Source: an uncultured Verrucomicrobiota bacterium
GTDB taxonomy: Bacteria > Verrucomicrobiota > Verrucomicrobiia > Limisphaerales > CAIMTB01
Direction: 5' to 3'
Length of the DNA: 64,000 nucleotides
Assembly (NCBI GenBank): GCA_964389135.1
Contig: CAYMDA010000002.1
Coordinates: 138,800 to 202,799 of the forward strand
Shown: positions 6,040 through 59,100 of the stretch, one piece after another
How the letters are laid out: each line of letters begins with the position of its first letter
Numbering within the stretch: position 1 is the first letter of the stretch
Notes under the pieces: generated by a model
Seen by the model: only the letters and a program-made list of their open reading frames with translations
Database searches by the model: none
Told to the model about the DNA's origin: nothing
Position numbers and translations under genes: made by a program

Positions 6040-8693
6040 TGACGGGGGTGCGGGCCGGCCGGCGGCCGGAAGCCGGATCCGCATCGGTGTCCGTGCGACG
6101 GCGGATCCTGTGCGCGGTCTTTCTCCTCTCGGGTGTGCCCGGCCTTGCGGCACAGCTCTCATGGGCCCGCGTCTTCAGCGCGGGGCTTGGTCACGAATGG
6201 CCCGCGCTGGTCGGCGTGGTGACCGCGTTCTTCGTCGGGATGGCGGCCGGCGCATGGATCCTCGACGGGCCCCTCGCGCGCAGCTCGAGACCGGCATGGT
6301 GGTACGCCGGACTCGAGTTCGGATGCGCCGTGTGGATCGTCGCGACATCCTTCGCGCTCCCTCAGGTCAACGCGCTCGCCGCGGAGTGGACCGGGATCGA
6401 GGCCGGCGCGCTCCGACAGACGGCGATCGCGTTCCTCGTTCCCTTCGCGCTCATCGCGCCCGCGACCGCGGCCCTGGGCGGCACGCTGCCCGCGATGGAA
6501 CGCGCCGTTGCGCCGCTGCAGCCGGACGGGCGCGCGGTGGCGCTCCTGTATGCCCTGAACACGGCGGGCGCCGTGCTGGGGGTGTGGCTGGCGATGGCAT
6601 TCGTCATGCCGCGGTTCGGATTTCGTGCGACGCTGTGGCTGGCGGCGGCCGTGCAGCTCGCGTGCGCCGGCGGCGCGATCCTCGCCTCCGGCATTTTCCG
6701 GACGGGTGACGATCGGGATTCGACTCGGACGCGCGTGAGGCCCCTCCCGAAACCCGTGGAGGCCGTGAAGACGCACGCGGGGCAGGGGACCGCCGGGGGG
6801 GACGCGGCCGCGCATGGACTCTCGCGACGGCGTCTGCACGCGACGGCGTGCTGGACGGGGTTCCTTGGAATGGGATTCGAGCTGCTCGGGGTGCGGGCCC
6901 TCGCGCAGGTGACGGAGAACACGATTCACACGTACGGCGCGGCGCTGGGCGTGTTCCTTGCCGGCACGGCGCTCGGGGCGGGATGGCTCCGCAGGCTGGA
7001 GCGGAGGGGCCGCGCGCCCGCGCTCGGGATCGTGGTGGCGGTGCCCGCGCTTCTCTGCGTGCTCGGGGGCGGGGTGATCGGGGCCAGTCCGCGGCTGCTC
7101 GAACCGCTCCGGGGCGCGGCGGGCCGGTGGGGATCGGAGGTGGTGCTTGCCGCGGCCGCGTTCCTGCTGCCGACCATGGGAATGGGCGCGGTCTTCAGCC
7201 GGGTCGTGCAGGTCATCCGGGACCAGGGCGGAGGCGTCGGCAGGGTGGTCGCATGGAACACCCTCGGCGCCGCGCTGGCGGGTCCCGCCGCGGTCGGCCT
7301 GCTCCTGCCGATCCTCGGGTTGCAGGTTTCACTCGCTTGCGTCTCCCTGGGCTATCTCGCCGCGGTACCGTGGCCTCCGGGAAGAACGGTTCTCGCCCTC
7401 GTGTGTCTCGCGGCGGGCGCGACGCCGTTCCTTCGCTTCGGAGAGCGGCTCCTCGAGGTGCCGCCCGGCGCGGAAGTGGTGCGGTTCGCGGAGGACCGTC
7501 TCGCCACGGTGGCGGTGATCCGGACGGCGGACGGCCACCGGGTTCTGAGGGTCAACAATCACTTTCAGCAGGGCGGCACGGCCACGGCGCTGGCGGCGCG
7601 GCGGCAGGGCCATCTCCCGCTCCTGCTCCATCCCGAGCCGCGGCGCGCGCTCTTTCTGGGCGTGGGAACCGGCGTCTCGATGGGCGCGGCGGCGGCATAT
7701 CCCGGCTTGAGCGCCGACGGGGTGGAACTTCTCGGCGCGGTGATCGAGGCGCTCCCGCTCTTCGAGCCGGAGAACAGGGCGCCCCAGGCGCGTCCGACGT
7801 TCCGGATCCTCGAGGGGGACGCGCGGCGGTTCGTGCGCGCCACCACCCGTCGGTACGATGTCATCGTGGGCGACCTGTACCACCCCGCGGAGGACGGCGC
7901 GGGCTTCCTGTACACGCGCGATCACTTCGAGGCCGTTCGCGACCGCCTCGCCCCGGGCGGCCTGTTCTGCCAGTGGATTCCCCTGCACCAGGTGACGCTG
8001 GAGGTGTTCTCCGACATGGCGCGGACGTTCGTCGAGGTTTTCCCCGGCGCCACGTTGTGGCTGCTGCGCTTCAACGTGGATGCGCCTGTCGTGGGGCTCG
8101 TCGGGGGACTCGCCCCGCTGCGTCTGGACCCTGCGGCCGTCGAGGCGCGGCTCAAGGAGGAGAACCTGGGGCCCGCCGCGGCGGAGGTCGCGTTCACGAG
8201 CGCTGTGCGCGTGCTCGGATGCCTGGTGGCCGGACCCGATTCGCTGCGGACCATCAGCGCCGGCGGATCCATCGCGACGGACGATCTTCCCCGGGTTCTG
8301 TTCCGTGCGCCGGAGGCGGTCTATCGCGCGACGGAATCGCCCGCCGCGCGGGTGATGACCCTGCTCGCGCGGGCCGATCCCGGGTTCACGGAGGTGATCG
8401 GGGAAGGTTCCGCGCCCGGACTGGCGGACCGCCTCGAAGCGTTTCGCGAGGCCCGTGATCTGCACCTGCGCGGTCTTGCGCGGGAGGAGGGCGAGGGTCC
8501 GCGCGCCGCGGTGGAGGAGTATCTCGCGAGCGCCGCGGCGAGCCCGGACTACACGGCCGGCTATGCGCAGGCCGTGCTCGTGGCCTCCGCCTACGCCCGG
8601 GAGGATCCGCCCCTGGCGCGAAGAATCCTCGAGGAACTGGTCCGCGCGCGGCCGGAGCAGCGGCTTGCGCGGGACCTGCTTCAGCGGCTTTGA
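6036..8693 (+). CDS. Fused polytopic membrane domain / spermidine-synthase-like methyltransferase-fold domain / helical C-terminal domain
   Basis: GTG 6036 overlaps the OPT stop (GTGA); ATG 6039 is the alternative. The N-terminal ~450 aa are hydrophobic. They are followed by LFLGVGTGVSM...YDVIVGDLYHP...LAPGGLFCQWIPLHQ, an aminopropyltransferase-like core. The C-terminus is TPR-like. Confidence 0.75.
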   Translation: MMTGVRAGRRPEAGSASVSVRRRILCAVFLLSGVPGLAAQLSWARVFSAGLGHEWPALVGVVTAFFVGMAAGAWILDGPLARSSRPAWWYAGLEFGCAVWIVATSFALPQVNALAAEWTGIEAGALRQTAIAFLVPFALIAPATAALGGTLPAMERAVAPLQPDGRAVALLYALNTAGAVLGVWLAMAFVMPRFGFRATLWLAAAVQLACAGGAILASGIFRTGDDRDSTRTRVRPLPKPVEAVKTHAGQGTAGGDAAAHGLSRRRLHATACWTGFLGMGFELLGVRALAQVTENTIHTYGAALGVFLAGTALGAGWLRRLERRGRAPALGIVVAVPALLCVLGGGVIGASPRLLEPLRGAAGRWGSEVVLAAAAFLLPTMGMGAVFSRVVQVIRDQGGGVGRVVAWNTLGAALAGPAAVGLLLPILGLQVSLACVSLGYLAAVPWPPGRTVLALVCLAAGATPFLRFGERLLEVPPGAEVVRFAEDRLATVAVIRTADGHRVLRVNNHFQQGGTATALAARRQGHLPLLLHPEPRRALFLGVGTGVSMGAAAAYPGLSADGVELLGAVIEALPLFEPENRAPQARPTFRILEGDARRFVRATTRRYDVIVGDLYHPAEDGAGFLYTRDHFEAVRDRLAPGGLFCQWIPLHQVTLEVFSDMARTFVEVFPGATLWLLRFNVDAPVVGLVGGLAPLRLDPAAVEARLKEENLGPAAAEVAFTSAVRVLGCLVAGPDSLRTISAGGSIATDDLPRVLFRAPEAVYRATESPAARVMTLLARADPGFTEVIGEGSAPGLADRLEAFREARDLHLRGLAREEGEGPRAAVEEYLASAAASPDYTAGYAQAVLVASAYAREDPPLARRILEELVRARPEQRLARDLLQRL

Positions 8694-29046: not shown

Positions 29047-30987
29047 ATGAGCGACACTTCGTCGTCTGGAGCTCCCTCCTGGAGCATCGAGGCCGCCCGT
29101 TCCCTGTACAACATCGACCGATGGGGAGCCGGCTACTTTGATATCAACGCGGAAGGTCATGTCGTCGCGCGTCCCTTGCAGGAGCGCGGCGCGGCGGTGG
29201 ACATGACCGTGATCATCGAGGAGGCGCGCGGGCGAGGGTTGAAATTCCCGCTCCTGGTGCGGTTCCAGGACATACTCCGCCACCGGGTCCAGGCGATCAA
29301 CGAGGCGTTTCGCACGGCGATCAACGAGTTCGGCTACCAGGGCAGGTACCGAGGCGTTTTTCCCATCAAGGTCAACCAGCTGCGGGAGGTCGTGGAGGAG
29401 ATCCTCGATGCGGGAAGGCCGTATTCCTTCGGTCTCGAGGTGGGCAGCAAGCCGGAGATGTTCGCCGCGCTCGCGCTCCAGGCGCAGGCGGGCAGCCTGA
29501 TCGTGTGCAACGGGTACAAGGACACCGCCTACATCCGCATGGCGCTCCTCGGCATCAAGCTGGGCAAGAAGGTGATCCTCGTCATCGAGAAGCTGGAGGA
29601 ACTGCGCCAGATCATCGCGATCTCCAGGCAGATGGGAGTCGAACCGCAGATCGGCGTGCGGGTGCGGCTGCTCGCGAAAGGCGCCGGAAAATGGGCCGAA
29701 AGCGGCGGTGAGAACGCCAAGTTCGGTCTCAGCACGGTGGAACTCCTCGCCGCATGCGAGTGCCTGCGGAGCGAGGGGCTCTCCCACTGCTTCCGGCTCG
29801 TGCACTTCCACATCGGGTCGCAGGTGCCGGACATCCTGACGGTCAAAAAGGCGGTGCAGGAGGCGGCGCGGTATTACGCCAAGCTCCACAAGATGGGTTT
29901 CTCGCCCGAGTTCCTCGACGTCGGCGGCGGCCTCGGCGTTGACTACGATGGAAGTCATTCGGCGTCCGACAGTTCCACGAACTATTCGCTCCAGGAATAC
30001 GCGAACGACGTCGTGTACTACATCGCCGACGTTTGCAACGCGGAGAAGGTCCCGCACCCGGACATCGTGAGCGAGAGCGGACGCGCGATCGTGGCGCACC
30101 ACAGCGTGCTGATCGTCGAGGTGTTCGGGTCGATCCACAAGACGGGCCTGGCGGAGACGCTCACCTACGGCGACCAGGAGCACGCCCTCGTGAAGGAGCT
30201 GCTCGACATGCGGAAGAACCTCCACAAGCTCAACAAGCTGGAGGCGTTCCACGATGCCGCGGAACGCCGGGAGGACGCCCACAACATGTTCGTGCTGGGC
30301 CTGATGGATCTGCAGGACAAGGCGAAGATCGAGGCGTTGTACTGGCAGATCAGCCAGGCGGTCGTCGCGAGCTTCAAGGGGCAGGCGTATGTCCCGGAGG
30401 AGATCCGCCGCCTCGAGGACAGCCTGGGCGACCAGTACCTGTGCAATTTCTCCGTGTTCCAGTCGCTGCTGGACCACTGGGCGCTCGGGCAGCTCTTTCC
30501 GATCATGCCGCTGGACCGCCTCGACGAACTGCCGTCGCGGGAGACGACGCTCGTGGACATCACGTGCGACTCGGACGGGCAGATCAACAAGTTCATCGAC
30601 CTGCGCGACGTCCGCGACACGCTGCCCGTGCACGAGCTTCGGCAGAACGGTCATGGCGCGGAGCCGTACTATCTCGGCTTCTTCCTGATGGGCGCCTACC
30701 AGGACATCATGGGCGACCTGCACAACCTCTTCGGGCGGGTCAACGAGCTCCACGTCTTCCTGGAGCCCGATGAGCCTGCGGGCTACTACGTCGAGGAGAT
30801 CATCGAGGGCGGAACCGTGATGCAGGCCCTCACCTCCGTGCAGTATGACGAGCACGAACTCAAGAGGCAGATGAAGGCGCAGATGGACGCGGCGATCAAA
30901 TCGGACCGCCTCAAGCCGAGCGAGGCGATGCGGCTGCTCGACGACTACGAGCGGGGCCTGAAGGAATACACCTACCTGTCCTCTTGA
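29047..30987 (+). CDS. speA: Biosynthetic arginine decarboxylase
   Basis: 646 aa. The N-terminus is SIEAARSLYNIDRWGAGYFDINAEGHVV. The PLP-lysine motif is FPIKVNQ. The length and C-terminal region are typical of SpeA. Confidence 0.95.
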   Translation: MSDTSSSGAPSWSIEAARSLYNIDRWGAGYFDINAEGHVVARPLQERGAAVDMTVIIEEARGRGLKFPLLVRFQDILRHRVQAINEAFRTAINEFGYQGRYRGVFPIKVNQLREVVEEILDAGRPYSFGLEVGSKPEMFAALALQAQAGSLIVCNGYKDTAYIRMALLGIKLGKKVILVIEKLEELRQIIAISRQMGVEPQIGVRVRLLAKGAGKWAESGGENAKFGLSTVELLAACECLRSEGLSHCFRLVHFHIGSQVPDILTVKKAVQEAARYYAKLHKMGFSPEFLDVGGGLGVDYDGSHSASDSSTNYSLQEYANDVVYYIADVCNAEKVPHPDIVSESGRAIVAHHSVLIVEVFGSIHKTGLAETLTYGDQEHALVKELLDMRKNLHKLNKLEAFHDAAERREDAHNMFVLGLMDLQDKAKIEALYWQISQAVVASFKGQAYVPEEIRRLEDSLGDQYLCNFSVFQSLLDHWALGQLFPIMPLDRLDELPSRETTLVDITCDSDGQINKFIDLRDVRDTLPVHELRQNGHGAEPYYLGFFLMGAYQDIMGDLHNLFGRVNELHVFLEPDEPAGYYVEEIIEGGTVMQALTSVQYDEHELKRQMKAQMDAAIKSDRLKPSEAMRLLDDYERGLKEYTYLSS

Positions 30988-31100
30988 CGTCGCGATACAC
31001 CACCGAGGCCTCCCCGGGTGCGACATTGTCCGCGGGCGAGGCCTGCGTTCCTCCGGCGCAGGGCCGGGGCGGCGCAGAGACGGGGGCGCTCATCTCCGCG

Positions 31101-31739
31101 ATGCGCGGGCTCACCGCGGTGTTCTGGGGCCTGCCGCTGGCGCTGCTCGCGTTCGCGAGGCATTTCGTGGTGCTCTGGCCGACGGTTTACGATCTCCTGC
31201 TGCCGATCGTGGCGTCGGGCCTGCTGCTGTTCGGCGTGAGTTCCATGGGCCGGATGCATCCGCGGGAGCGGATCTGGCAGCGGTCGGTGTTCACGGCTCA
31301 GCTGCTGGCGCTGGTGCTGACGGGGCTGTCGCCCTTCCTCTTCCTCTGGAGCAGGGCTCCATCGGTGCCGTTCTACGCGCGGGCGGTGCTGATGATCGTG
31401 GGGGTGGCGTTCGCGCTGATGATCGCGCTCACGCGCATGCTCGCGCGGCTGTCCGCCCTGCTTCCGGACGACACGGCGCGCGCGGACGCGCGCCTGTTCC
31501 ATCTCGTGTCGAGCTACGTGGTGCTGCTCCTGGCCGGGATCGGGGTGTGGGTGTACCTCCGGGTGGCGCCGATCTCGCTGAACAATCTGCTCGCACTGCC
31601 GCGCCAGCCGTTCGGCTTCGCGCGGCAGGCGTTTCTGCTGCTGCTGGCGCTGGTGCCGGTGGCCATGGCGATGTCGGTCTCCTGGAAGCTGAAGGAGGTG
31701 GCGATGGCCGTGGTTGTCGGATCGCGCCGATCAGGGTAG
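31101..31739 (+). CDS. Polytopic membrane protein, unknown function
   Basis: 212 aa from ATG 31101; the track start TTG 30984 overlaps the speA stop. It has about six hydrophobic spans and strong G/C preference at codon position 3. I recognise no family. Confidence 0.6.
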   Translation: MRGLTAVFWGLPLALLAFARHFVVLWPTVYDLLLPIVASGLLLFGVSSMGRMHPRERIWQRSVFTAQLLALVLTGLSPFLFLWSRAPSVPFYARAVLMIVGVAFALMIALTRMLARLSALLPDDTARADARLFHLVSSYVVLLLAGIGVWVYLRVAPISLNNLLALPRQPFGFARQAFLLLLALVPVAMAMSVSWKLKEVAMAVVVGSRRSG

Positions 31740-31793: not shown

Positions 31794-31952
31794 CTAGTGG
31801 GTCTGGCAGCCGTACCGGATGAACAACGCGAGGAACCCGATGATGGCGAGGATAAGCAGCCAGACGCCGTACCCGTGCGCCGCGAGCGCCAGCGCAAGCC
31901 CAAGGACGAATGCGATCGCCAGAATCACGAGCGATGCCCAGACAAAGTTCAT
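31794..31952 (-). CDS. 52-aa two-helix membrane protein (resembles the lmo0937-type small membrane protein family)
   Basis: My own translation gives MNFVWASLVILAIAFVLGLALALAAHGYGVWLLILAIIGFLALFIRYGCQTH, with ATG 31950-31952 and TAG 31794-31796. It is below the 60-aa cutoff of the ORF track. Confidence 0.5.
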   Translation of the reverse strand: MNFVWASLVILAIAFVLGLALALAAHGYGVWLLILAIIGFLALFIRYGCQTH

Positions 31953-32039
31953 GCCCGTCATCGTACCCGTTAGCGCGTCCGGCTCAAGCGGTGAATAGGA
32001 GGTTGGGGGCGTAGAGCGGACCTGCTGCTCTCGAAGGGC

Positions 32040-33720
32040 AGGACGAGCGAATCGTCGAAATAGTCAGTTCACCAATCGTAATTGAGTATGGAAGTATTGC
32101 TGATTGTACTTGCTATCGTGTCGCAACTCGCTGGTTCCGAGTTCTTGGCGATCGGTGTTACTCCAAATGAGCCCGATGGGCTGTCCGATCGCGCCTCTGT
32201 GCATATTGACGGGGTCACGAGGCTAGGAGATGGCCGAATGGAGCGATAGTTCGGCGGCTCCTCTGTGCCTACCGAATGCGCCAAATACATAGGCGCCCGT
32301 CCTCGGTGAGTGCGCTGAGCGCGCTTCCGTCTGGCGCCAGTTTGAGAGTGGCTACACCTTCGTCGCCGGTAGGAGGGTTTCGCTGCTCTATATCTAGCGT
32401 AGCGATCTCCTCAAAGCCGGGGATCCGCCAAATAATAACTCGGCCGTCAGCTCCACCAGAGATCAACCGATTGTTTTCTAGGCTGAACAGCAGACTTTGA
32501 ACGAATCTTCGATGATTCGTAAGGGGTGGAAGCCACTTCGATCTGGCGCGATCCCATATTGCGATAGTAGCATCGTTGTAGATGGCAGCAGCAAGCCATC
32601 GCCCATCGGAGGACAACGCAAGCGCTTGCACCTCGCCATCCGCCCTTGCTACGTCTTCTAAGATCTCGCCGGATTCTACGTGTCGCCTCCGTATTAAGCC
32701 TGCAGTATTTCCAGTCCAGAACTCACGTGAATCCGCGGTGAACGCGATTCCGTAAGTTGATTCTCCACTTTGATCAGTTACATTCGTTACTCGTCCTGAC
32801 TCCAAGTCAATGATGTGTAGTTGACCGGCATTTCCGCTGACGATGACCTTTGTTTGAGTTGGGGAAACGCCCCATGCGTCCATCGAGAATTCCCCTGGGA
32901 GGCCGGAAAAGACAATGTCTTGAGTCCCGTTCTTGAGGTCGACTCTCTTGATCGTCCAGTCGCTCGTGAACGCCCATAGAACATCGCCGGACTTGGAGAA
33001 AGCGATAGGCTGGAAGACTCCTTCTATTCTTTCGTGAAACTCCAAATCATTTGCGGAAACTAGCGCGATTCTTCCTGAGGCATCGGTGACAGCGACAGTT
33101 CGGGCAGACGGATCGAAGACCATATCGCCATGAACGTCACCGAACACCCCTTCGAGCGCTGAGCGCTGCTGGGGCGGTGGTATCCTGAATGCCCGAATAT
33201 TTCCTGAATCATCGGCTCCGAAGACGATCTTGCTGTCTGGACTCCATGCTACAGCCGCGGCGGGTCTCCCCAGACCGCGATGAAAAGCTTCAAGCTTGCC
33301 GGTTTCTACGTCCCAAACGCCAATTGCCTGATCAGCGCCAGCTGTTGCAAGCTTACCGCCTCGCAATGAGAATGCAGCATCTTGGACTCGAGCTGTGTGC
33401 CCGGTGAGGAGTCGCGGTTCGGAGGATTCAGAGCTAAATAGGATTGGAGTTAGGCCTCCAACATTGACGGCAAAATGACGTCCGTCGGGTGAGCATCGGA
33501 GCCAGACAATTCGTCCGCTGACCGAACTCGACCATGATTTGGTAGTCGCTAGGAGGTCTACATAGGCAACCATTCGCTCCCGAAGTGCTCCCTCCTCTTT
33601 GAACAGGCCGATTGCGATTCCTGATCCGTCAGGAAATGCATCCATCGCCGAGACGCGGAAATCTGGCCAGCTTGCCGAGACGTTGAATTGCGCTGTCGGT
33701 GGCGCGGCATTTGCAGCATC
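32040..33720. other. Low-GC compositional island (42-57 % vs 63-68 % flanks) covering the 3' half of the kinase gene and its 3' flank
   Basis: Hand counts per 60-nt line: 32041 = 43 %, 32521 = 52 %, 32761 = 42 %, 33001 = 43 %, 33421 = 47 %, 33541 = 55 %, 33601 = 57 %. For comparison, 31981 = 63 %, 33781 = 67 % and 34021 = 67 %. Confidence 0.8.
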
Positions 33721-35211
33721 GATCACGCTCAAGATCCAATCTCCCGGCGGTGGAGAGACGACGAGGTAGTGGCTGTTGGAGAGGAGCGAGATGAGTCTCT
33801 GACCGGTGTTGATGCGGCCGAGGGGGCCGTTGGTGGGGGATTCGAAGCGGAGGGCGCGGATGGGTTCGTCGACGACGATTCGCCCGTCCTCGGTGAAGCC
33901 TCCGAGGACCTTGGCGTTGTCGAACACGCGGACGATGCGGCCGGTCTGGATGTCCCAGATCCCGACGCGGTCGTCATTGAACGACGCGGCGAGCCAGCGG
34001 CCGCCCGGATCGACGGCGAGCTTGCGGATTCCCACCCCGTTCGTGAGGGCCTCGAACGGTGTTCCCTCGCCCTGGACCTCGCGGTTCAGGATCGACCACT
34101 CGAGCCCGCGTAGATCGCGTTCACCCGGGGCGGGGATCTGCCGTTCGAGGGCGGCGCGGGCGCGGCCGAGGTCGCCGCTCGCCTTGGCGAGCTGGGCGAC
34201 GGCGAGATCGGAACGGTAGAGCGCGAGGCGGGTGCGCTGGTTGGCCTTGCCGAGCACCTGGGAGCGCCAGATCAACAGGCCGACGATCGCGCAGGCGATG
34301 GTGATGCCGAACGCCGCGGCGACCGCGATGCGACGGAACCGGCGGCGCAGGTTCTCGTAGAACGCGACCGATTTGCCCGCCTGGACGAGCTCGAGCTCGC
34401 GGGCGAGAACCGCGGCCGACGCCTGCCGCTCCCTTGGATCGGGATGGCACGCGCGCAGGACGATCGAGTTGATCTCGCGCAGGAGAGCGGAATCCGAGCC
34501 TTCGATCAGCTCCTCGGGAAGGCGCGGGAACTCCATGCGGTCGAGCCCCGTCGAGAGTTCGTAGAGGACCTTGCCGAAGCTGTAGACATCGCCGCTGATC
34601 GATCCCGGCCCCTCGGGGGGGACATACCCGGGGGTGCCGACGCAGGTCATGGTGGCCTCCGTCGCCGCGACGAGCCCGACATCGGCGAGCTTGGGCACCT
34701 GCTGCACGAAGATGATGTTCGACGGCTTGATGTCTCGATGCACCAGCCGCACCTCGTGGAGCACGGCGAGGCCGCGGGCGAGCTCGAGCGCGATCTGGAT
34801 GCATTCGGCCGCGGGCAGGCGGCCGCGCCGGGCGAAGAGCTCCTTGAGGGTCAGGGGGACGTACCGGTCGGGATCGATCGCGGAGCCGGCCTCCGCGTCG
34901 TCGGCGGGCTCCATGACGTAGTAGAAGTAGCCGGCGGCGTCGTTGCGCCCGACGTGGAGCAGCGCAAGCTGGCGGGGCCGTCCCGACACCGCGGCCTGGA
35001 AGCGGCTGATGCCCTCGAGTTCGCGCAGGAAGGGACGCTCGTCCTCGAAGCGGGAGCGGCGCACGATCTTGATGACCCTGAAGACGCCGGTGACGCTGCG
35101 CGCGAGCCAGACCTCCCCGTAGCTGCCGCGGCCGATGGGGCGGAGCAGGGTGTAATCCGGGATGTGGGGTGGTTCGGGCGTCTCCGGCATCACGCTCGGC
35201 GGGTCACGCAT
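32269..35211 (-). CDS. Transmembrane receptor Ser/Thr protein kinase with large WD40/beta-propeller ectodomain
   Basis: Kinase motifs: GRGSYGEVWLA, FRVIKIV, HRDIKPSNI, LADVGLV and GTPGYVPPE. There is a single TM helix, IAVAAAFGITIACAIVGLLIW, at about residue 300. It is followed by ~650 aa of WD40-like blades (GRWLAASFNDDRVGIWD, GKLATAGADQAIGVWD, RLISGGADGRVIIWR). Confidence 0.9.
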   Translation of the reverse strand: MRDPPSVMPETPEPPHIPDYTLLRPIGRGSYGEVWLARSVTGVFRVIKIVRRSRFEDERPFLRELEGISRFQAAVSGRPRQLALLHVGRNDAAGYFYYVMEPADDAEAGSAIDPDRYVPLTLKELFARRGRLPAAECIQIALELARGLAVLHEVRLVHRDIKPSNIIFVQQVPKLADVGLVAATEATMTCVGTPGYVPPEGPGSISGDVYSFGKVLYELSTGLDRMEFPRLPEELIEGSDSALLREINSIVLRACHPDPRERQASAAVLARELELVQAGKSVAFYENLRRRFRRIAVAAAFGITIACAIVGLLIWRSQVLGKANQRTRLALYRSDLAVAQLAKASGDLGRARAALERQIPAPGERDLRGLEWSILNREVQGEGTPFEALTNGVGIRKLAVDPGGRWLAASFNDDRVGIWDIQTGRIVRVFDNAKVLGGFTEDGRIVVDEPIRALRFESPTNGPLGRINTGQRLISLLSNSHYLVVSPPPGDWILSVIDAANAAPPTAQFNVSASWPDFRVSAMDAFPDGSGIAIGLFKEEGALRERMVAYVDLLATTKSWSSSVSGRIVWLRCSPDGRHFAVNVGGLTPILFSSESSEPRLLTGHTARVQDAAFSLRGGKLATAGADQAIGVWDVETGKLEAFHRGLGRPAAAVAWSPDSKIVFGADDSGNIRAFRIPPPQQRSALEGVFGDVHGDMVFDPSARTVAVTDASGRIALVSANDLEFHERIEGVFQPIAFSKSGDVLWAFTSDWTIKRVDLKNGTQDIVFSGLPGEFSMDAWGVSPTQTKVIVSGNAGQLHIIDLESGRVTNVTDQSGESTYGIAFTADSREFWTGNTAGLIRRRHVESGEILEDVARADGEVQALALSSDGRWLAAAIYNDATIAIWDRARSKWLPPLTNHRRFVQSLLFSLENNRLISGGADGRVIIWRIPGFEEIATLDIEQRNPPTGDEGVATLKLAPDGSALSALTEDGRLCIWRIR

Positions 35212-35851
35212 CCACGGCGCCGTGGTCGAGCCGGTTCCGGATCGCGGCGAGTTCCGCGCGGAGCTGGCGGCCGACCCGATGGCGGACCACGTAAACCAGG
35301 GCGGGCGTCATGCGGAAGAACTTGGCGACCTTGGCGGGCGGCCATTCGTCCACGATGAGCATCTGGAAGATCTGGAGGTCGCGCGGGTTCACCTTGTGCT
35401 GGAGGCGCTCGAGCGCGGCGCGGATGAGTTCGCGCCGCGCGTCCGCCTCCAGGGTCGCCTCCACGTCGTCGGGGGCGCTGACGCGGCGGACCGCGGAGTT
35501 GGCGCCCGACTCGGTCACGTCACCCATGGACTCGAGCTCGAGGCGCCCGCGCTCGCGGATCTTGTCATCGGCGCGCCAGCGTGCCAGCTGATACAGCCAC
35601 CGGCGGAACGATCCGGCGCGGGAGGCGGGTTCGAAATCGTGAATGGTTTCCGCGATCCGCTTGAAGACCTCCTGGGCCACTTCCTCGGCCTCGGCGTTGG
35701 AAAGGCCGCGCTTTCGGGCGAGACCGCGGACGACGCGCTCGTACGTGCGGTAGAACTGGTTCCAGCTCTCCGCATCGTCCAGGTCCCGCAGCCGCATGAG
35801 GAGGCTGGCGCGGGTTTCCAGGGAGTCGTCGGCGGACGTTGGGCAGCTCAT
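35204..35851 (-). CDS. ECF-type RNA polymerase sigma-70 family factor
   Basis: 215 aa. Region 2 is WNQFYRTYERVVRGLARKRGLSNAEAEEVAQEVFKRI. The region 4 HTH is PPAKVAKFFRMTPALVYVVRHRV. Its TGA 35204-35206 lies inside the kinase start (ATGCGTGA, an 8-nt overlap). Confidence 0.9.
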   Translation of the reverse strand: MSCPTSADDSLETRASLLMRLRDLDDAESWNQFYRTYERVVRGLARKRGLSNAEAEEVAQEVFKRIAETIHDFEPASRAGSFRRWLYQLARWRADDKIRERGRLELESMGDVTESGANSAVRRVSAPDDVEATLEADARRELIRAALERLQHKVNPRDLQIFQMLIVDEWPPAKVAKFFRMTPALVYVVRHRVGRQLRAELAAIRNRLDHGAVDA

Positions 35852-36006: not shown

Positions 36007-37188
36007 TCAGGCGACCAGGCGGTACCAGTTGTCCCGCTGGCGGGGCTCCCAGCCGAGCTCCGAGATGAGCCGGCGCATGTCCGCGACGGACATGCGGTAG
36101 GTCGTTCCGGCGGCGCTGACGACGTTCTCCTCGAGCATGATGCTGCCGAGGTCGTTCGCGCCGTACGTGAGGGCGATCTGGCCGATCTCCTGTCCCTGCG
36201 TCACCCACGAGCTCTGGATGCTCGGGATGTTGTCCAGGTAGATGCGGGCGAGCGCCTGCATGCGAAGGTATTCATGGGCCCCGGCCGGAGGCGCCTTCAG
36301 GACCGCGTTGTCGGGCTGGAAGGTCCAGCAGATGAAGGCGGTGAAGGCGCCGCCCGAGAGGGTGCCCTGCTCGAGCGCGTGCGCGTAGGCGGCGGCGCGG
36401 CTGATGGGATCGGGCGGGCCGGGGAGCTGGAGCCTTTCGAGGGAGACATCCTGCTGTCGGCGAACGACCTCCAGGTGCGCGAGCCGGTCGTCGAGGGACT
36501 CGACGTGCCCGAACATCATGGTGGCGGTGCTCGCGAGGCCGAGGCGATGGGCGTGGTCCATGACGCTCATCCAGTCGTCGGTCATCGCCTTGAGCGGGGA
36601 AATGCGCCGGCGAACGGCGTCGACGAGGATTTCGCCGCCCCCTCCGGGGATGCTGCCGAGGCCGGCCGCGGCGAAGTCACGGAGGACCTGCTCGACGGGT
36701 TCGTCAAAGAACTCGGAAAACGCGACGAACTCGCTGGGACTGAAGCCATGGACGTTGAAGCCGGGGAAGGTGTCCCGGACATGGCTGAGCAGGTCGAGGT
36801 ACCACTGCTTGGTGAGGCGGGGGTGGTGGCCGCCCTGCAGGAGGATCTGGGTGCCGCCGTGCTCGATCGTCTCGCGGATCTTCTGGTCGAGTTCGTCGAG
36901 GGAGAGGACGTACGAGTCCGGATCCTTCTCCGTCCGCCAGAAGGCGCAGAACTTGCAATAGACGTTGCAGACGTTGGTGTAGTTGACGTTGCGGTCGACG
37001 ATGTAGGTGACGGTGTCGGCTCCGCGGCCGTCGTGGAGGGAGCGGCGGACGAGGGCCCGGCGATGGTCCGCGAGCGCGCCGAGTTCCTCGAGCGGAAGCT
37101 GAAGCAGGGCGCGGGCTTCCGCTGCGTCGATGCGTTTGCCGTCCCAGACGCGCTGGCAGAGGTCGTCGATGGAAGCGTCCTGAACCAC
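36007..37188 (-). CDS. Futalosine-pathway radical SAM enzyme, MqnC/MqnE family (MqnC-like)
   Basis: Radical-SAM CX3CX2C motif (NVCNVYCKFCAF). The C-terminal SSWVTQG...GANDLGSIMLEENVVSAAG is typical of CofH/MqnC/MqnE. The start appears to be GTG 37188. Confidence 0.8.
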   Translation of the reverse strand: MVQDASIDDLCQRVWDGKRIDAAEARALLQLPLEELGALADHRRALVRRSLHDGRGADTVTYIVDRNVNYTNVCNVYCKFCAFWRTEKDPDSYVLSLDELDQKIRETIEHGGTQILLQGGHHPRLTKQWYLDLLSHVRDTFPGFNVHGFSPSEFVAFSEFFDEPVEQVLRDFAAAGLGSIPGGGGEILVDAVRRRISPLKAMTDDWMSVMDHAHRLGLASTATMMFGHVESLDDRLAHLEVVRRQQDVSLERLQLPGPPDPISRAAAYAHALEQGTLSGGAFTAFICWTFQPDNAVLKAPPAGAHEYLRMQALARIYLDNIPSIQSSWVTQGQEIGQIALTYGANDLGSIMLEENVVSAAGTTYRMSVADMRRLISELGWEPRQRDNWYRLVA

Positions 37189-37885: not shown

Positions 37886-39298
37886 TCAGCAGTCGTAGTA
37901 GAGGTAGAACTCGTACGGATGGGGGCGGAGGCGGATGGCGTCGTGTTCCTTCCGCTTCTGCTCGATCCACATGTCGATGAATTCGCGCGTGAAGACATCG
38001 CCCTTGAGAAGGAACTCGTGGTCGTTCTGGAGGGCGTCGAGCGCCTCGGAGAGCGAACCGGGGACCTTGGGCACGCGGGCGAGTTCCTCCGGCGGAAGCT
38101 CGTAGAGGTTCTTGTCCATGGGCTCGCCGGGATCGATCTTGTTGAGGATGCCGTCGAGTCCCGCCATCAGCAGCGCGGAGTAGCAGAGGTAGGGATTGGC
38201 GGCCGGATCGGGCGGACGGTACTCGATGCGCTTGGCCTTGGGGTTCTCGCTGAAGGTTGGGATGCGGATCGCGGCGGAGCGGTTGCGCGCCGAGTATGCG
38301 AGGTTGACGGGCGCCTCGTAGCCCGGGACGAGCCGCTTGTAGCTGTTGACCGTGGGGTTGCAGAGGGCGCAGAGGGCGCCGGCGTGCTTGAGGATGCCGC
38401 CGATGTAGTAGAGCGCCATCTGGGAGAGGCCGGCGTACTCGCTGCCGGCGAAGAGCGGCTTGCCCTTCTTCCAGAGGGACTGGTGGGTGTGCATGCCGGA
38501 GCCGTTGTCGCCGAAGAGCGGCTTGGGCATGAACGTGACGGTCTTGCCGTGCTTCCGGGCGGTGTTCTTGATGATGTACTTGTAGAGCATCATCGTGTCC
38601 GCCGTCTTGACGAGGGTGTCGAAGCGGAAGTCGATTTCGGCCTGGCCGGCGGTGGCGACCTCGTGGTGCTGGCGTTCGACCTTGATGCCGAGCTGCTCCA
38701 TCACGAGGACCATCTCGGTGCGGAGATCCTGCTGGGTGTCTGCCGGCGCGACCGGGAAGTAGCCTTCCTTGTGGCGGATCTTGTAGCCGAGGTTCGGCAT
38801 TTCATCGCGGCCGGTGTTCCAGATGCCCTCCTCGCTGTCGACCGAGTAGTAGCAGCCGTTGCTGCGGGCCTCGTACTGGACGTTGTCGAAGATGAAGAAC
38901 TCCGCCTCGGGCCCGAAGTAGGCGACATCGGCGATGCCGGTGCTCTCGAGATACTTCTCGGCCTTCTGCGCGATGCCGCGGGGGTCGCGGGCGTAGGGTT
39001 CCTTGGTTCCGGTCTCGGCGATGGTGCAGGTGAGGCTGAGCGTGGGGACCGCGCAGAACGGGTCCATGAACGCGGAGGAGGGGTCGGGCATGGCGAGCAT
39101 GTCGCTGGCCTCGATCGACTTCCAGCCGCGGATCGAGGAGCCGTCGAAGCCGAAGCCCTCCTCGAACACCTCGGGGGTGAGCTCGGCGACGGGCACGCTG
39201 AAGTGCTGCCACGTTCCGAAGGTGTCCACGAACTTCACGTCCACGATCTTGGCGCCGGAACTCTGCGCCAGGTCGATTACCTGCTTGGGGGTCGTCAT
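37886..39298 (-). CDS. glnA: Glutamine synthetase type I
   Basis: 470 aa. Motifs FDGSSIRGW and [18 protein letters not shown]. The adenylylation-type Tyr motif is [10 protein letters not shown]. Confidence 0.97.
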
Positions 39299-56182: not shown

Positions 56183-59100
56183 CTACCGGTCCCTGCCGAG
56201 TTCCTCGTAATAACGCCGTACCAGCTCACTGAAACGCGCCGGCACCGGATCCCGATCGATCGGCAGGAGCGCATCGTCCGACGTTCGCCGGGCCAGCTCG
56301 GCGTCCAGTTCCCGGCGGACTTCCACGAGCGGGTTCAGGATCTCGAGCTGAACGACCGCCCAGTCCGGCTTCCTGAGCGCGCGCCGCACCTCCAGCCGGG
56401 TCAGGCGCGCGCGCTCCCTGGCGGTGGCCACCTGGTCGCGGAGTTCCGGCATGTCGATGAGCTCCTCCACCTCGCGCAGGCGATCCGACCACGGCCCGAA
56501 GCCCTCCGAAGTGATGGGGCCGCCAGCCTGCGTTTCCGGACCGCCCGCATCCGCCCCGAGCAGCTCGTCGAGATCAAGGCCGCCGGGCCCGCCACCGCGG
56601 GAATTGCCGGAGGCGTCCGGGGATCCCCCGCGACCACCGCGCGCAAGGCGCGGGCCGTCGTCGGAACCACCCCGACCACCGCCACCGGACGGCTGATCGC
56701 CTCCACCCTGACCCTGGCCTTGCTGACCCTGACCCTGGCCTTCGCCTTGCTGGCCCTCCCCCTGCTGTTCGCCCGACTGGCCCTGGCCGCCGGCCTGTTG
56801 TCCTTCGCCCTGCTGCTGATCCTGACCCTGGCCCCCACCCTGACCCTGGCCCTGCTGGGCCTGACCCCGTTCGCCCTGGCCTTGCCCCTGGGGATTCTGT
56901 CCGTCCTGTCCCTGACTCGCCTGCCTGCCGTCCCCGGCGTCCTGTCCGTCCTGCGCTCCTTCGCCGGTCGCGTTCTGCCGGGATGGATCGCCGGGTCCGC
57001 GTCCTGCCTGCTGCGGATCCGAGGGCTGGCCGCCGCCGGCCGAGGCGAACTGGTTGGTGGTGGCGTTTCGGATTTCGCTCCGGAGCTGTTCGGCGAGCGC
57101 CTCGAGTTCGTCGCGCGCGAGGCGCAGCGCGCTGGTGTCGTCGCCGAGCACGCTTTCGGCGGCGCGCTCGACGCCGCGCCGGACGGATTCGAGATTGGCG
57201 AGGGCACGTTGGGCGGCCTCGCCGGCCTCGGGGACGAAACCCTCGCGAAGAATGTCCGCCGCGGACGCGATGGACTTGGCGTCGCCCTGCTCCGCGTGTT
57301 CCCGGAGCTGCTGGTACAGGCGCTGGGTCATGCGGCCGCGGTCGATCAGCTCCTGCTGGAGCTGCCGGACCGCCTGCGACTCGTCCTGGCTGAACTGACG
57401 CAGCGTGTCGTAGAGGTGCTCGGAAACGAGCGGTTCGGAGCCTTCCGCGGCCTGGGAAAGCTGCGCGGCGCGCTGCACGAGGTTCGTGAGGCGGGCCTGC
57501 TGTTGTTCCAGTCGCTCGAGAACGGACTCGGGCACGTCGGGCGTGCCGAGGGCACGGCGCCCGCCCTGGTTTCGATTGGCGAGCTCGCTGACGATCTCCT
57601 CCTGCTGGCGCTCGAGTTCGCGCGCGGCGGCGCGCATTTCGCGCAGGTCCTCGGCGAACTCGCTGGAGTTCTGCCGGCGCAGGTCATCGCGCATGGTCTG
57701 GAGCTGGCGCTGGGCGCGGGTGCCGGCGGCGACGGCCTGGGAAATCTCCCCTTCGCCGGTTGCCTCGTTGGCACGCTGCATGTCCTGGCGTGCCTGCTCG
57801 AGCTGCTGCCGCAGCTCGGACATGCTGGACTGGTTCTCGGGCCGCTGGGTTCGCTGCTCGAGTTCGTCGAGGTCGGCGAGCGCGCGCTGCTGTTCCTCCT
57901 GGAGGCGCTTGAGCTGGCGCCGGAGTTCCTCGCGCTCGGCCTCCGTGCGCGCCTCCTGGAGGGCGGTCTGCAGCTCCTTGAGGCGCTGGTTAAGGTCCTG
58001 CTGGCGGCGGGCGAGCTCCTGGAGGCGATTGAGCACCTGCAGCTGCTCGCGCCGTTCCTGGGAGACCGGGGACTGAGCCTGGCGCTGCGTCTCGTAGCGG
58101 TTTTCGGACCGGGAGAGCTCGAGCTGATCCAGCTGTCGCTGATTGCCTCCGCCGCCGCCTCCGCCGCCGCCCCCGCGGCTCCGAGTCACCTCGGTTTCCC
58201 GGGCCTGCAGCCGCAGGAGAGCCTGGTAGGCGGCCTGTTCCGCCTCGAGCGCCGTGGCGAGCGCGGGGATGGAATCCGCGGCATCCCCGAGACGAACCAC
58301 CGCGAGGCTCATGTTCTCGATGACCTCCTCCCACTGAGCGCCCATGCGCGGGTCGCGGGCCTGTGCCGCCGCGGAATCGGCGCGATCCATCGCGTGCGCC
58401 TGCGAGTCCCGCACGACGACGACGTCGGACTTGTATCCCTCGCTGACGGCGCGGTGTTCGCGCTGCAGCTTCCACGTTGCCGTGATGATCTGCTTCTGAA
58501 GGCGGATGAGGTTCTCCGTCTCGCCTCCCCCCCCGCCGGCGCCCTGCTGGTTCTGCTCCTCGCCGCCCGAGTTCATCGCCTCGCGGAAGATCTCGTCGAA
58601 GGGACGCACCTCCGCGAAGAGCAGGTCGCTCGTCGTGCGGCGCACGTTGCCGTCGGGACCGATGTCATCCGCCCAGACGAACCACGAGATGAGTTCATCG
58701 GGCCGGACGCCGAGTTCCTCGAGTTTCAGCAGGTGCCGGAACGGGCGCCGTTCGGTCGCGGGCGTGCCGGTGCCGAGCTCGATCGTCCGGGTGGGGCTGC
58801 CTACGAGCGTGAACCCGATCCCGTGGGCGAGCACTCCGAAGTCATCCCACACCGTGCCCTCGAAGCGCACCTCCTCGAGTGCGGACGGTCGGATGTCGCC
58901 GCGGGGCGAGGCGAGTTTGATCTCGGGCGTGCGGTTCGGCAGAACCTCGAAGAAGAAGGGATCCGCCACCTTGTTCGTCCGGCCGTCCGCGTCGGTGAGC
59001 ACCAGGCTGTACGTGCCGCGAGTCTCGAGGGGAAAGGCGGGAAGGCTCGCGGCCGGGGCGTTCTCAGCGAGCGCCAGCGGGACATCGGGGACTCCCTCGG

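Follow-up and report, generated by a model that had tools for sequence, protein, structure and literature searches.

A GC-poor, hypervariable sensor segment within the receptor kinase gene of a Verrucomicrobiota sigma-factor/kinase locus

Why does a single uninterrupted reading frame change base composition abruptly in its middle? The 64,000-nucleotide stretch of Verrucomicrobiota DNA analysed here (the window) carries a 980-aa receptor Ser/Thr kinase ORF (32269..35211, minus strand), the distal half of which lies in a tract of low GC. The original prediction, made from the sequence alone, read this as foreign DNA that had replaced the ligand-sensing module by recombination and named an assembly chimera as an alternative. 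The low GC reported at 32040-33720 was confirmed (GC 0.544; 100-nt windows of 0.45-0.65). Sliding GC (200 nt) was 0.50-0.60 across ~31,900-33,800 and 0.62-0.75 on both sides, 1-kb windows fell below 0.63 at 32-34 kb only, and 31962-33756 had a GC of 0.550 against 0.691±0.019 for 1,173 other windows of the same length (minimum 0.633; z = -7.3). The sliding-GC and GC3 check proposed at the outset thus gave a strongly deviant profile, GC3 of the ORF dropping from 0.91 to 0.52. The maximum-likelihood GC3 change point lay at codon 485 (~33756; 2-lnL support 33753-33765; lnL gain ~96), within the predicted range of codons 475-500, and the frame runs intact across it, as had also been predicted. In 150-codon bins, GC3 was 0.874±0.057 in the other ORFs of the window and 0.61, 0.51 and 0.53 in the distal kinase bins. 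The 3' nucleotide change point was placed at 31902 (range 31813-32059), beyond the kinase stop codon; low GC continues to ~31,96x, in keeping with a tract that runs through the stop into the 3' flank. The tract therefore extends from ~31,96x to ~33,79x, slightly wider than first delimited. Its 3' edge is a GC-poor spacer (31962..32087, no strand assigned; 100-nt GC 0.45-0.60) that is unalignable to relatives, and the non-coding gaps of the window had a GC of 0.63-0.72.

The two compositional parts of the gene were compared with its protein architecture. Codons 1-485 (33757..35211, minus strand; GC3 0.907) encode a Hanks-type kinase domain (Pkinase, residues 20-222), a transmembrane (TM) helix (~residues 295-317) and the first ~2.5 blades of propeller 1, and the genome-typical composition originally described for the kinase domain, TM helix and early ectodomain held. 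Codons 486-980 plus the stop (32269..33756, minus strand; GC3 0.521) encode the remainder of propeller 1 and the whole of propeller 2; the ORF is intact, with a pN much lower than pS. Pfam WD40 and Beta-prop families matched the sensor part, the AF2 model (pLDDT 79.6) contained ~28 and ~27 strands on either side of a low-confidence linker, and the top Foldseek matches were 2ymu, 1nr0 (two seven-bladed propellers) and 4nsx. The sensor is, on this model, a tandem WD40 beta-propeller of two seven-bladed propellers. The composition boundary falls within the first propeller rather than at a domain border, so that the segment does not correspond to a clean swap of a ligand-sensing module. An overlapping or antisense gene was rejected as a cause of the odd codon positions: the other frames have no long ORFs, and GC1, GC2 and GC3 are all flat.

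The kinase gene is embedded in a conserved neighbourhood. Upstream lies an ECF-type sigma factor gene (35204..35851, minus strand; Pfam Sigma70_r2, TIGR02937 sigma70-ECF; GC3 0.89), followed by an MqnC-like radical-SAM gene (36007..37188, minus strand; TIGR03699, 427 bits). The end of the sigma gene, with its stop codon, runs 8 nt into the start of the kinase gene, and no anti-sigma gene separates them. Homology and gene context suggest a pathway in which a signal sensed by the periplasmic tandem propeller leads the Hanks kinase in the cytoplasm to activate the ECF sigma factor with which it is co-transcribed. Sigma adjoins kinase in all orthologous loci reaching far enough upstream (64-76% aa identity), the MqnC-like gene adjoins sigma in the seven loci extending that far (77-84% identical), and MqnC-sigma-kinase synteny is kept in all loci long enough to show it. 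Downstream, a 251-aa conserved hypothetical gene (30984..31739, plus strand) and an arginine decarboxylase gene (29047-30987) follow the kinase in five loci. The former is conserved in loci L012, L013, L016 and L011 at 50-70% aa identity, and the latter is 86-88% identical in L012/L013 and 36% in L016. Neither the 251-aa protein nor the two small ORFs described below had a Pfam or NCBIfam match.

An assembly chimera, joining two organisms within the kinase ORF, would account for the sharp compositional step, and metagenome contigs of relatives do often break near it. Nine independently assembled contigs from eight runs nevertheless matched the window with one mismatch in total, spanning both junctions together, and five independent Logan contigs code for exactly this 980-aa protein. 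At least six other species have the same architecture, again with the frame intact. The chimera is refuted, with practically no probability left to it.

A recent horizontal acquisition would mean that a GC-poorer foreign segment replaced the sensor half in this genome and has not yet ameliorated. The sharp-edged atypical composition agrees with this, as do the failure of the distal half to align with the distal halves of the nearest relatives and the recombinational replacement seen in the kinase family (below). It is contradicted by the relatives themselves. At ~14 of ~14 orthologous Verrucomicrobiota loci with the same MqnC-sigma-kinase neighbourhood, GC3 fell from 0.75-0.92 to 0.32-0.57 at the same place. 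In a codon alignment of 12 sequences (9 distinct alleles), the kinase domain had a GC3 of 0.67-0.97 and the distal part, in 30-codon bins, one of 0.3-0.7; the dip recurred in the nucleotide GC of L014, L016 and L018, and L032 and L033 dropped from ~0.75 to 0.32-0.33. The alignment of orthologues that accompanied the original prediction as a proposed check thus showed a conserved kinase half and a divergent distal half, with the low GC kept in all of them, an outcome that the original prediction had itself named as refuting acquisition.

The state is also old. At identical residues, codon differences reached 0.77-1.07 of the value expected at saturation, in either half and for every pair tested. 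Synonymous sites are thus saturated between alleles, and low GC is an old, maintained, stationary state. (Comparison of dS between the two halves was abandoned as uninformative on rates, every available pair being saturated after codon-bias correction.) Low GC is a long-standing property of every allele and not the trace of a recent import. It is not a general property of WD40 sensors or of sigma-linked kinases, since three paralogous sigma/kinase pairs had no GC3 step and another WD40 protein in the window had a GC3 of 0.89.

Searches for a source pointed the same way. The distal half did not have nearest relatives of a different taxonomy: its close relatives all belong to this kinase family (37-50% identity) and comprise P0001-P0004, which are metagenome-derived, and nine MAG loci, eight labelled Verrucomicrobiota and one, a short contig that is likely mis-binned, labelled Vicinamibacterales. 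No donor outside the family was found in 5.8 billion proteins, the best non-family match to the distal half being 26% identical, and viral contigs yielded no match to it. A stand-alone WD40 donor gene, suggested by the best distal-half matches of 498-507 aa, was rejected, as the DNA frame of these runs upstream into a TM and kinase part; the apparently free-standing matches come from cut contigs or mis-called genes. Several database entries are ~500-aa "stand-alone WD40 proteins" produced by splitting the gene at the composition step. The amino-acid make-up of the window allele is nearly the same in its distal and N-terminal halves (GARP 0.33 vs 0.36; FYMINK 0.176 vs 0.177). The original remark that no integrase, tRNA or flanking direct repeats were visible was borne out by scans of the window and neighbouring genes: the window holds no tRNA genes and no meaningful repeats, no repeat pairs involve the tract, and the neighbours scanned are housekeeping genes with no mobility genes among them. 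No Rfam families were found. The segment fails the usual tests for an island in every respect except atypical composition, being present and GC-poor in the orthologues and having neither mobility hallmarks nor relatives in other taxa. Recent acquisition is largely refuted and very improbable; of the reading first proposed, the mosaic gene with a recombination-replaced distal part stands, and the recent foreign origin and the clean module do not.

The nature of the low GC was then considered at the level of codons. Selection that favours rare codons or an AT-rich mRNA over the distal part, e.g. for slower translation during propeller export and folding or for limited expression, would agree with the retention of the step in all orthologues and with a distal codon usage opposite to the strong preference of the genome for C-ending codons. 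It does not agree with GC3 being independent of residue conservation (the same at invariant and variable residues), an observation that also ruled out translational-accuracy selection. Nor does it agree with the covariation of GC at positions 1 and 2 with GC3 across alleles (r = 0.86) and the accompanying shift in amino-acid content, with the low GC of the non-coding spacer, with the GC-rich first 2.5 blades of the same propeller, or with the normal usage of the paralogous WD40 sensor kinases and the other WD40 protein of the window. Base use at 4-fold sites in the distal half is near uniform. The low GC is a DNA-level character and not a result of codon selection, which is highly unlikely as the explanation.

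The step in composition is matched by a step in divergence. Orthologues were 75-97% identical in the kinase domain and 30-52% identical (aa) in the distal part (38-48% in one comparison set), and the identity step coincided with the GC3 step in each pair. Nucleotide similarity of the window to its relatives ends at 33794-33826 (L016, L008, L032) or 33979 (L012) and starts again at ~31700 for the two with an alignable 251-aa gene, L016 and L012; the distal half of the window's kinase gene matched no relative at the nucleotide level.

Three pairs of close relatives carry very different distal parts between near-identical or closely similar flanks, two of them known from short or truncated contigs. 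L011 and L013, on contigs without the 5' junction, are 99.45% identical over 909 bp of flank, their distal parts being 39% identical (aa) with no nucleotide match and their spacers 589 and 264 nt long. L020 is 100% identical to L018/L019 over its terminal 83 bp, the only flank overlap available, and the distal parts are 44% identical. L020 and L019 come from one metagenome. L032 and L033 match at 88.7% across the 1386 bp leading to the "GQRLY" codons (flanks 87-89% at the nucleotide level overall), where the 5' break falls exactly at the GC3 boundary; 1000 and 1874 nt without similarity follow, after which similarity resumes at 86.6% over 164 bp at the counterpart of a 55-aa ORF (below). Their proteins are 94% identical in the N-terminal part and 31% in the C-terminal part. 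The three pairs indicate replacement of the whole cassette by recombination in the conserved flanks.

Accelerated evolution in place, or targeted hypermutation, would instead invoke a raised local mutation rate with no exchange of alleles. In the closest pairs the distal part evolves at ~7-10 times the rate of the kinase domain, and the near-uniform 4-fold sites and the tracking of GC3 by GC12 are also compatible with such a process. In clade A the distal part follows the N-terminal tree (L009-L018 76%, L014-L015 74%), so that much of the divergence could be fast evolution in situ. For L011/L013, however, the contrast between flanks and distal parts would need a rate excess of more than 100-fold with knife-edge borders; the spacers of that pair differ in length, as do the stretches between the break points of L032/L033. 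No reverse transcriptase (among the neighbours scanned), template repeat or silent cassette was found within 10 kb, and the variable region is ~1.8 kb long, against ~0.1 kb for the target of a diversity-generating retroelement. Accelerated evolution or hypermutation without exchange is accordingly unlikely.

The species of the window was represented by one allele only, on nine contigs; very different alleles were seen in related lineages. Other alleles of the species were sought through the exact sigma and 251-aa proteins, and all contigs recovered were essentially identical. With a single allele sampled, polymorphism and replacement are shown for the relatives and not for the lineage of the window.

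The reading that we favour, and consider probable, is that the tract is the variable cassette of a conserved Verrucomicrobiota sigma-factor/receptor-kinase locus, swapped between close relatives. The ECF sigma gene and the first 485 kinase codons would evolve slowly with the composition of the genome. The ~495 distal codons and ~300 nt of 3' flank with a small convergent ORF would form a hypervariable segment existing as many deeply diverged alleles (30-52% aa identity). Homologous recombination, crossing over in the conserved flanking sequences, would pass the whole segment from one close relative to another, and diversifying or frequency-dependent selection acting on propeller recognition may maintain the alleles. 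Replacement of the whole cassette would form no heteroduplex inside it. The cassette could thereby avoid whatever force, linked to recombination (GC-biased conversion or selection of greater efficacy), holds the rest of these genomes at high GC, and would then drift toward an AT-biased mutational equilibrium. Escape from recombination-linked GC enrichment is our preferred reading of the low GC; an association between recombination and GC3 in bacteria has been described by Lassalle et al. 2015 (PMC4450053).

The same static picture would also arise from a GC-poor reservoir that has escaped sampling, or from selection acting directly for AT-richness. The former supposes that a source such as GC-poor relatives, or a mobile element carrying the cassette, supplies cassettes again and again, each residing too briefly to ameliorate. 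Replacement of the cassette is real, some alleles are very GC-poor with an AT-shifted protein (L033, GC3 0.33 and FYMINK 0.25), and the family is rare in databases and hence thinly sampled. Every sampled copy reaching the boundary nonetheless has a GC-rich context and a GC-rich N-terminal half, neither GC-poor genomes nor viral contigs yielded a copy of the family, and alleles in different hosts are saturated relative to one another. We regard such a reservoir as improbable.

Two small ORFs lie at the 3' side of the cassette. An unannotated 53-aa ORF (32088..32249, plus strand), convergent to the kinase gene and within the low-GC tract, encodes a protein that is hydrophobic at its N-terminus, varies in its middle and ends in a G-x-R-L-x-D-(G/R) tail. 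A counterpart in the same orientation and position was found in all 11 of the other 11 distinct loci that reach it (tblastn of the window ORF, E = 1e-7 against L008 and 3e-6 against L016), and pN/pS was 0.15-0.25 in two close pairs. In two conspecific pairs the allele-linked differences were confined to its last ~10 codons; the bulk of the ORF thus lies outside the swapped segment, and only these C-terminal codons travel with it. None of the tests run supported a role as an immunity gene. The second, a 55-aa ORF predicted to have two TM segments (MNFVW...FIRYGCQTH; 31794..31961, minus strand), is called in Logan contigs, lies in the GC-rich conserved flank and has a homologue in L012.

The locus was compared with known polymorphic and kinase-linked systems. 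In the agr locus of S. aureus (agrB-D-C; PMC10482373) and in the comQXP pherotypes of B. subtilis (PMC4408185), a hypervariable region ends within a receptor kinase gene and alleles differ between close strains. The present locus shares with them a sharp-bordered hypervariable region ending within the kinase gene, with a variable sensor and a conserved kinase part; very different alleles in closely related organisms, here in related lineages rather than in the species of the window; and, lying within the variable segment or at its edge, a small ORF whose N-terminus is hydrophobic. It differs in pairing a Hanks-type Ser/Thr kinase with an ECF sigma factor instead of a histidine kinase with a response regulator, in having a predicted periplasmic tandem beta-propeller and not a polytopic membrane domain as sensor, in lacking a signal-processing gene and in the position of its small ORF, mostly outside the swapped segment. 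The very large GC3 contrast of 0.9 vs 0.3-0.55 is a measurement on the Verrucomicrobiota locus alone.

The gene order resembles that of EcfP/PknT (Vibrio parahaemolyticus) and EcfK/PknS (Xanthomonas citri), of group ECF43 and related kinase-linked groups, in which the ECF sigma factor is activated by the adjacent Ser/Thr kinase (PMC8999054, PMC7826278): the gene of an ECF sigma factor directly adjoins that of a transmembrane Hanks kinase, in the present case with an overlap, and an anti-sigma gene is absent from between them. In ECF43, as described in PMC8999054, region 2.2 has a phospho-acceptor Thr in place of the acidic DAED motif. The region 2.2 motif of the sigma factor described here is NAEAEEVAQEVF; it has NAEAEE at that place (sequence LSNAEAEEVAQEVF), and acidic residues are present, unlike in ECF43. 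By this motif the sigma factor resembles other kinase-linked ECF groups, of undescribed mechanism, rather than ECF43. The consulted parts of PMC8999054 and PMC7826278 make no mention of a hypervariable sensor cassette.

Deeply diverged low-GC alleles at a fixed chromosomal place between conserved flanks are a feature shared with loci of other bacteria. The O-antigen, pilin, flagellin and pyoverdine loci of P. aeruginosa are GC-poor, hypervariable loci under diversifying selection in a GC-rich bacterium, with diverged alleles of atypical codon usage at a fixed place and conserved flanks that permit homologous replacement. Those loci comprise whole genes or clusters for surface structures, whereas the Verrucomicrobiota segment starts mid-domain in a probably periplasmic signalling protein, and its composition step is found across many species of the phylum. 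In Rhs/CdiA polymorphic toxins the core is conserved, and a C-terminal tip that differs in GC can be replaced together with a small downstream gene. The intragenic composition step and the replacement of the C-terminal part and the small downstream gene as a unit are alike, but the variable parts of the present family are mutually homologous (the same double propeller), contain no toxin domain and are accompanied by a convergent small ORF.

A bolder interpretation, which we consider rather unlikely, is that Verrucomicrobiota use the locus, with its Hanks kinase and ECF sigma factor, for a form of self/non-self or "dialect" signalling not described before. The swappable double propeller would be the specificity determinant, kept polymorphic by frequency-dependent selection, and its cognate partner would be the C-terminal R-L-x-D tail of the small convergent protein, travelling with the cassette. 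The GC3 step would then be a natural experiment indicating that recombination-linked processes, and not mutation bias or codon selection, keep these genomes GC-rich.

What looked like foreign DNA or a chimera is a conserved feature of the whole family, which composition-based detection of horizontal transfer and gene callers misread. It suggests that, in an uncultured group, the sensor of a Ser/Thr-kinase/ECF-sigma pathway carries a polymorphism of the recognition type, for which we know of no precedent in this type of signalling. A single reading frame here holds two long-term synonymous equilibria (GC3 of ~0.9 and ~0.3-0.55) at the same expression level and with the same tRNA pool, and the kinase gene therefore offers an unusually clean test of whether high GC is upheld by biased gene conversion or linked selection, or by mutation bias or codon selection.

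The tract lies over the 3' half of a kinase ORF (32269..35211, minus strand, 980 aa) and its 3' flank. Overall GC of the window is 0.686; 32-34 kb alone falls below 0.63 in 1-kb windows, and in 200-nt windows GC is 0.50-0.60 over ~31,900-33,800, against 0.62-0.75 on either side. GC of 31962-33756 is 0.550, whereas the remaining windows of equal length average 0.691±0.019 and none is below 0.633 (z = -7.3). GC3 of the kinase ORF is 0.907 in codons 1-485 (N-half) and 0.521 in codons 486-980 (distal half), with the change point placed by likelihood at codon 485 (window ~33756; support 33753-33765; lnL gain ~96), and GC1 and GC2 change little along the gene. In 150-codon bins, distal GC3 is 0.61, 0.51 and 0.53 versus 0.874±0.057 for other ORFs in the window. 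Low GC extends ~300 nt beyond the kinase stop codon into a GC-poor spacer; non-coding gaps elsewhere in the window have GC of 0.63-0.72. A low-GC tract in the distal half of the kinase gene had thus been correctly predicted, and its location at 32040-33720 stands, with limits set slightly too narrow. GC3 is also low (0.56) in the first 150 codons (about 59999-60448) of a 1421-aa ORF (56183-60448, minus strand) at normal nucleotide GC, where a start codon set too far upstream by crude ORF picking is most likely, and not a second low-GC3 patch.

Five contigs, each assembled independently, carry the exact 980-aa protein. Agreement with the window is essentially exact (a single mismatch overall) across nine contigs from eight sequencing runs, which together span both tract edges, leaving the suspicion of an assembly chimera unsupported. 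The feature is real, statistically extreme and no artefact. Independent Logan assemblies of different runs share end points at 30687, inside the arginine decarboxylase gene (five contigs), at 38411-38507, and at 33523 and 33535, inside the GC-poor segment (two contigs); these could reflect a repeat, strain variation or a drop in coverage.

The kinase carries an N-terminal Hanks-type domain (Pfam Pkinase, residues 20-222), a hydrophobic helix (residues ~295-317) and WD40-type repeats over the remaining ~660 residues. In the AlphaFold model of residues 364-980 (pLDDT 79.6) these form two propellers of ~7 blades each, with a weak linker (protein residues ~681-693) between them; the tandem seven-bladed propellers 2ymu, 1nr0 and 4nsx match best in structure. 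Codon 485 lies within roughly the third blade of propeller 1, so the GC3 step does not mark a domain border; replacement of a module at such a border is unsupported. The stop codon of an ECF sigma factor gene (35204-35851, minus strand) overlaps the kinase gene start by 8 nt. Pairs of ECF sigma and Ser/Thr kinase genes are already known, and in group ECF43 the sigma is phosphorylated by its kinase (PMC8999054; PMC7826278). An acidic motif, NAEAEE (NAEAEEVAQEVF), is kept in region 2.2 of the window sigma (residues ~50-65), whereas ECF43 proteins lack the acidic region 2.2 motif. The window sigma resembles other kinase-linked groups more than ECF43 proper; should the kinase control it, the mechanism may not be the one used by EcfP/PknT. 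Paralogues of the kinase domain at 50-62% identity are numerous in Verrucomicrobiota, with TPR, TolB-like, FG-GAP, lectin and TIR sensors among their fusion partners, and each paralogue inspected (3/3, L022 and L024 among the loci) adjoins its own ECF sigma gene. Sigma-linked Ser/Thr kinases are thus greatly expanded in the phylum.

Scanning collections of genomes and metagenomes, supplemented by look-ups, yielded ~14 distinct orthologous loci, almost all in Verrucomicrobiota MAGs. They have an MqnC-sigma-kinase neighbourhood in common, followed in five loci by the conserved hypothetical 251-aa gene (30984..31739, plus strand, in the window) and, where the locus extends far enough, by arginine decarboxylase. 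Every one shows the drop in GC3: the kinase part has 0.75-0.92 and the distal part 0.32-0.57, with the step at a position that shifts slightly by lineage (residue ~330 to ~480). The step is absent from three of three paralogous sigma/kinase pairs, whose sensors are of TPR or WD40 type, and from another WD40 protein within the window. In all orthologue pairs, codons for the same amino acid differ, in both halves, to 0.77-1.07 of the extent expected at saturation. Each half thus has a stationary composition, and the low GC is no relic that has yet to ameliorate. Foreign DNA, the source originally suggested for the distal half, is unsupported, since every orthologous locus has a GC-poor distal part and compositions are stationary.

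A search with the distal half alone returned four proteins at 38-44% identity, the next matches falling to 26%, and three of the four looked like free-standing WD40 proteins of ~500 aa. For two of these matches (P0003 and P0004) the reading frame extends upstream to reach the TM segment and, on the contig of P0004, the kinase part as well, so that stand-alone proteins were rejected in favour of cut contigs or genes split by callers at the compositional step. Such splitting accounts for these "WD40 repeat proteins" and for spurious opposite-strand ORFs over the GC-rich N-half; it was seen in contigs L005/L006 (592-2088), L033 (1421-2926) and L001-L004, and database entries for the kinase family are therefore often truncated.

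Identity among orthologues is 75-97% in the kinase domain, 45-83% in the membrane-proximal part and 38-48% in the distal part, and in each pair the drop coincides with that of GC3. Nucleotide similarity to the window ends at 33794-33826 for three relatives and at 33979 for a fourth; in the two with an alignable 251-aa gene it starts again near 31700. The stretch that cannot be aligned corresponds essentially to the low-GC tract. Replacement, not gradual divergence, is evident in three pairs of loci. L011 and L013, from different studies, are 99.45% identical over 909 bp downstream, yet their distal halves share 39% protein identity and no nucleotide match, and their spacers measure 589 versus 264 nt. 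L020 is 100% identical to L018/L019 over its last 83 bp, with distal halves at 44%; L020 and L019 come from the same metagenome. The N-halves of L032 and L033 align gap-free at 88.7% identity over 1386 bp, the match stopping abruptly at the "GQRLY" codons (window residues ~470-476, the GC3 boundary); past the break there is no similarity over 1000 versus 1874 nt, then 86.6% identity again, and the proteins are 94% identical in the N-terminal part and 31% in the C-terminal part. With like flanks and unlike distal halves in three pairs, the original prediction of a mosaic gene made by recombination was right in kind. The distal identity matrix is near star-like (30-52%), except for L009-L018 (76%) and L014-L015 (74%), whose N-halves group likewise; therefore vertical descent with fast change and whole-allele replacement both occur. 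Searches for a reverse transcriptase, repeats, silent copies, tRNA genes, Rfam families and viral relatives were all negative, in keeping with the earlier remark that tRNA genes and flanking repeats were missing.

Most loci have an intact distal ORF, and with pN well under pS the propellers are therefore functional. Lesions confined to the distal GC-poor half, with an intact N-half, occur in L016 (6330-7850, at least four frameshifts), L014 (~6891-6908, one frameshift) and L032 (5190-6190, a ~125-aa deletion and truncation), and represent either sensor decay in some lineages or long-read indel errors in an AT-richer stretch. The 3.1-kb contig L011 (JBIKWH010000461.1) is filed under a MAG labelled Vicinamibacterales (Acidobacteriota), yet it carries a Verrucomicrobiota kinase and is the contig matching L013, a Verrucomicrobiota MAG contig; judged on this match it is probably mis-binned.

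An unannotated 53-aa ORF (32088-32249, plus strand; MEVLLIVLAIVSQLAGSEF...GVTRLGDGRMER) lies inside the tract, convergent with the kinase gene, whose stop codon is 19 nt away. Counterparts stand at the same place in 11/11 other distinct loci reaching that far; their N-terminus is hydrophobic, the middle varies and the C-terminus ends in a G-x-R-L-x-D tail. With pN/pS of 0.15-0.25, the ORF is under purifying selection. No Pfam or NCBIfam family matches it, and it is a possible partner of the propeller. In each of the two conspecific pairs, the 3' break precedes its stop by ~10 codons; the cassette thus takes along the tail of the ORF only, and these last ~10 codons are the sole part that differs with the kinase allele. 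Between the cassette and the 251-aa gene is a 55-aa ORF (31794-31961, minus strand; MNFVW...FIRYGCQTH) with two predicted TM helices and no family match; L012 has it too, as do L032/L033, whose nucleotide similarity resumes there.

Several features of composition argue against codon selection. GC3 is independent of residue conservation (0.48 at invariant distal sites; 0.81-0.84 at variable kinase sites); four-fold sites are C 0.6-0.8, G 0.1-0.3 and A+T below 0.16 in the GC-rich part and near-uniform in the distal part (A 0.30, C 0.29, G 0.19, T 0.22); GC at positions 1+2 and amino-acid content track GC3 across alleles (r = 0.86, slope 0.45); and the spacer is GC-poor as well. A directional pressure on the DNA of the segment is preferred. 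According to Lassalle et al. (PMC4450053), GC3 is higher in genes that recombine, in most of the bacteria studied. We prefer the view that the segment escapes a GC-raising force linked to recombination: swapping whole cassettes would form heteroduplex in the flanks only, and inside the cassette GC-biased repair would be missing and selection less effective, so that AT-biased mutation would prevail. An unsampled GC-poor reservoir supplying the cassettes is a possible alternative source of the low GC, as is direct selection for AT-richness.

The feature is best described as an allelic specificity cassette, or mosaic gene: a conserved sigma/kinase locus bears a sharply bounded, deeply polymorphic, GC-poor cassette that is replaceable via recombination in conserved flanks. 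We infer that diversifying or frequency-dependent selection maintains its alleles, acting on recognition by the periplasmic propellers. We know of no earlier description of such a cassette in this signalling class and phylum. The closest functional analogues are the hypervariable regions of agrB-D-C (PMC10482373) and comQXP (PMC4408185), whose borders likewise fall inside a receptor kinase gene. With its unusually clean compositional contrast, this locus allows the cause of high GC to be tested.
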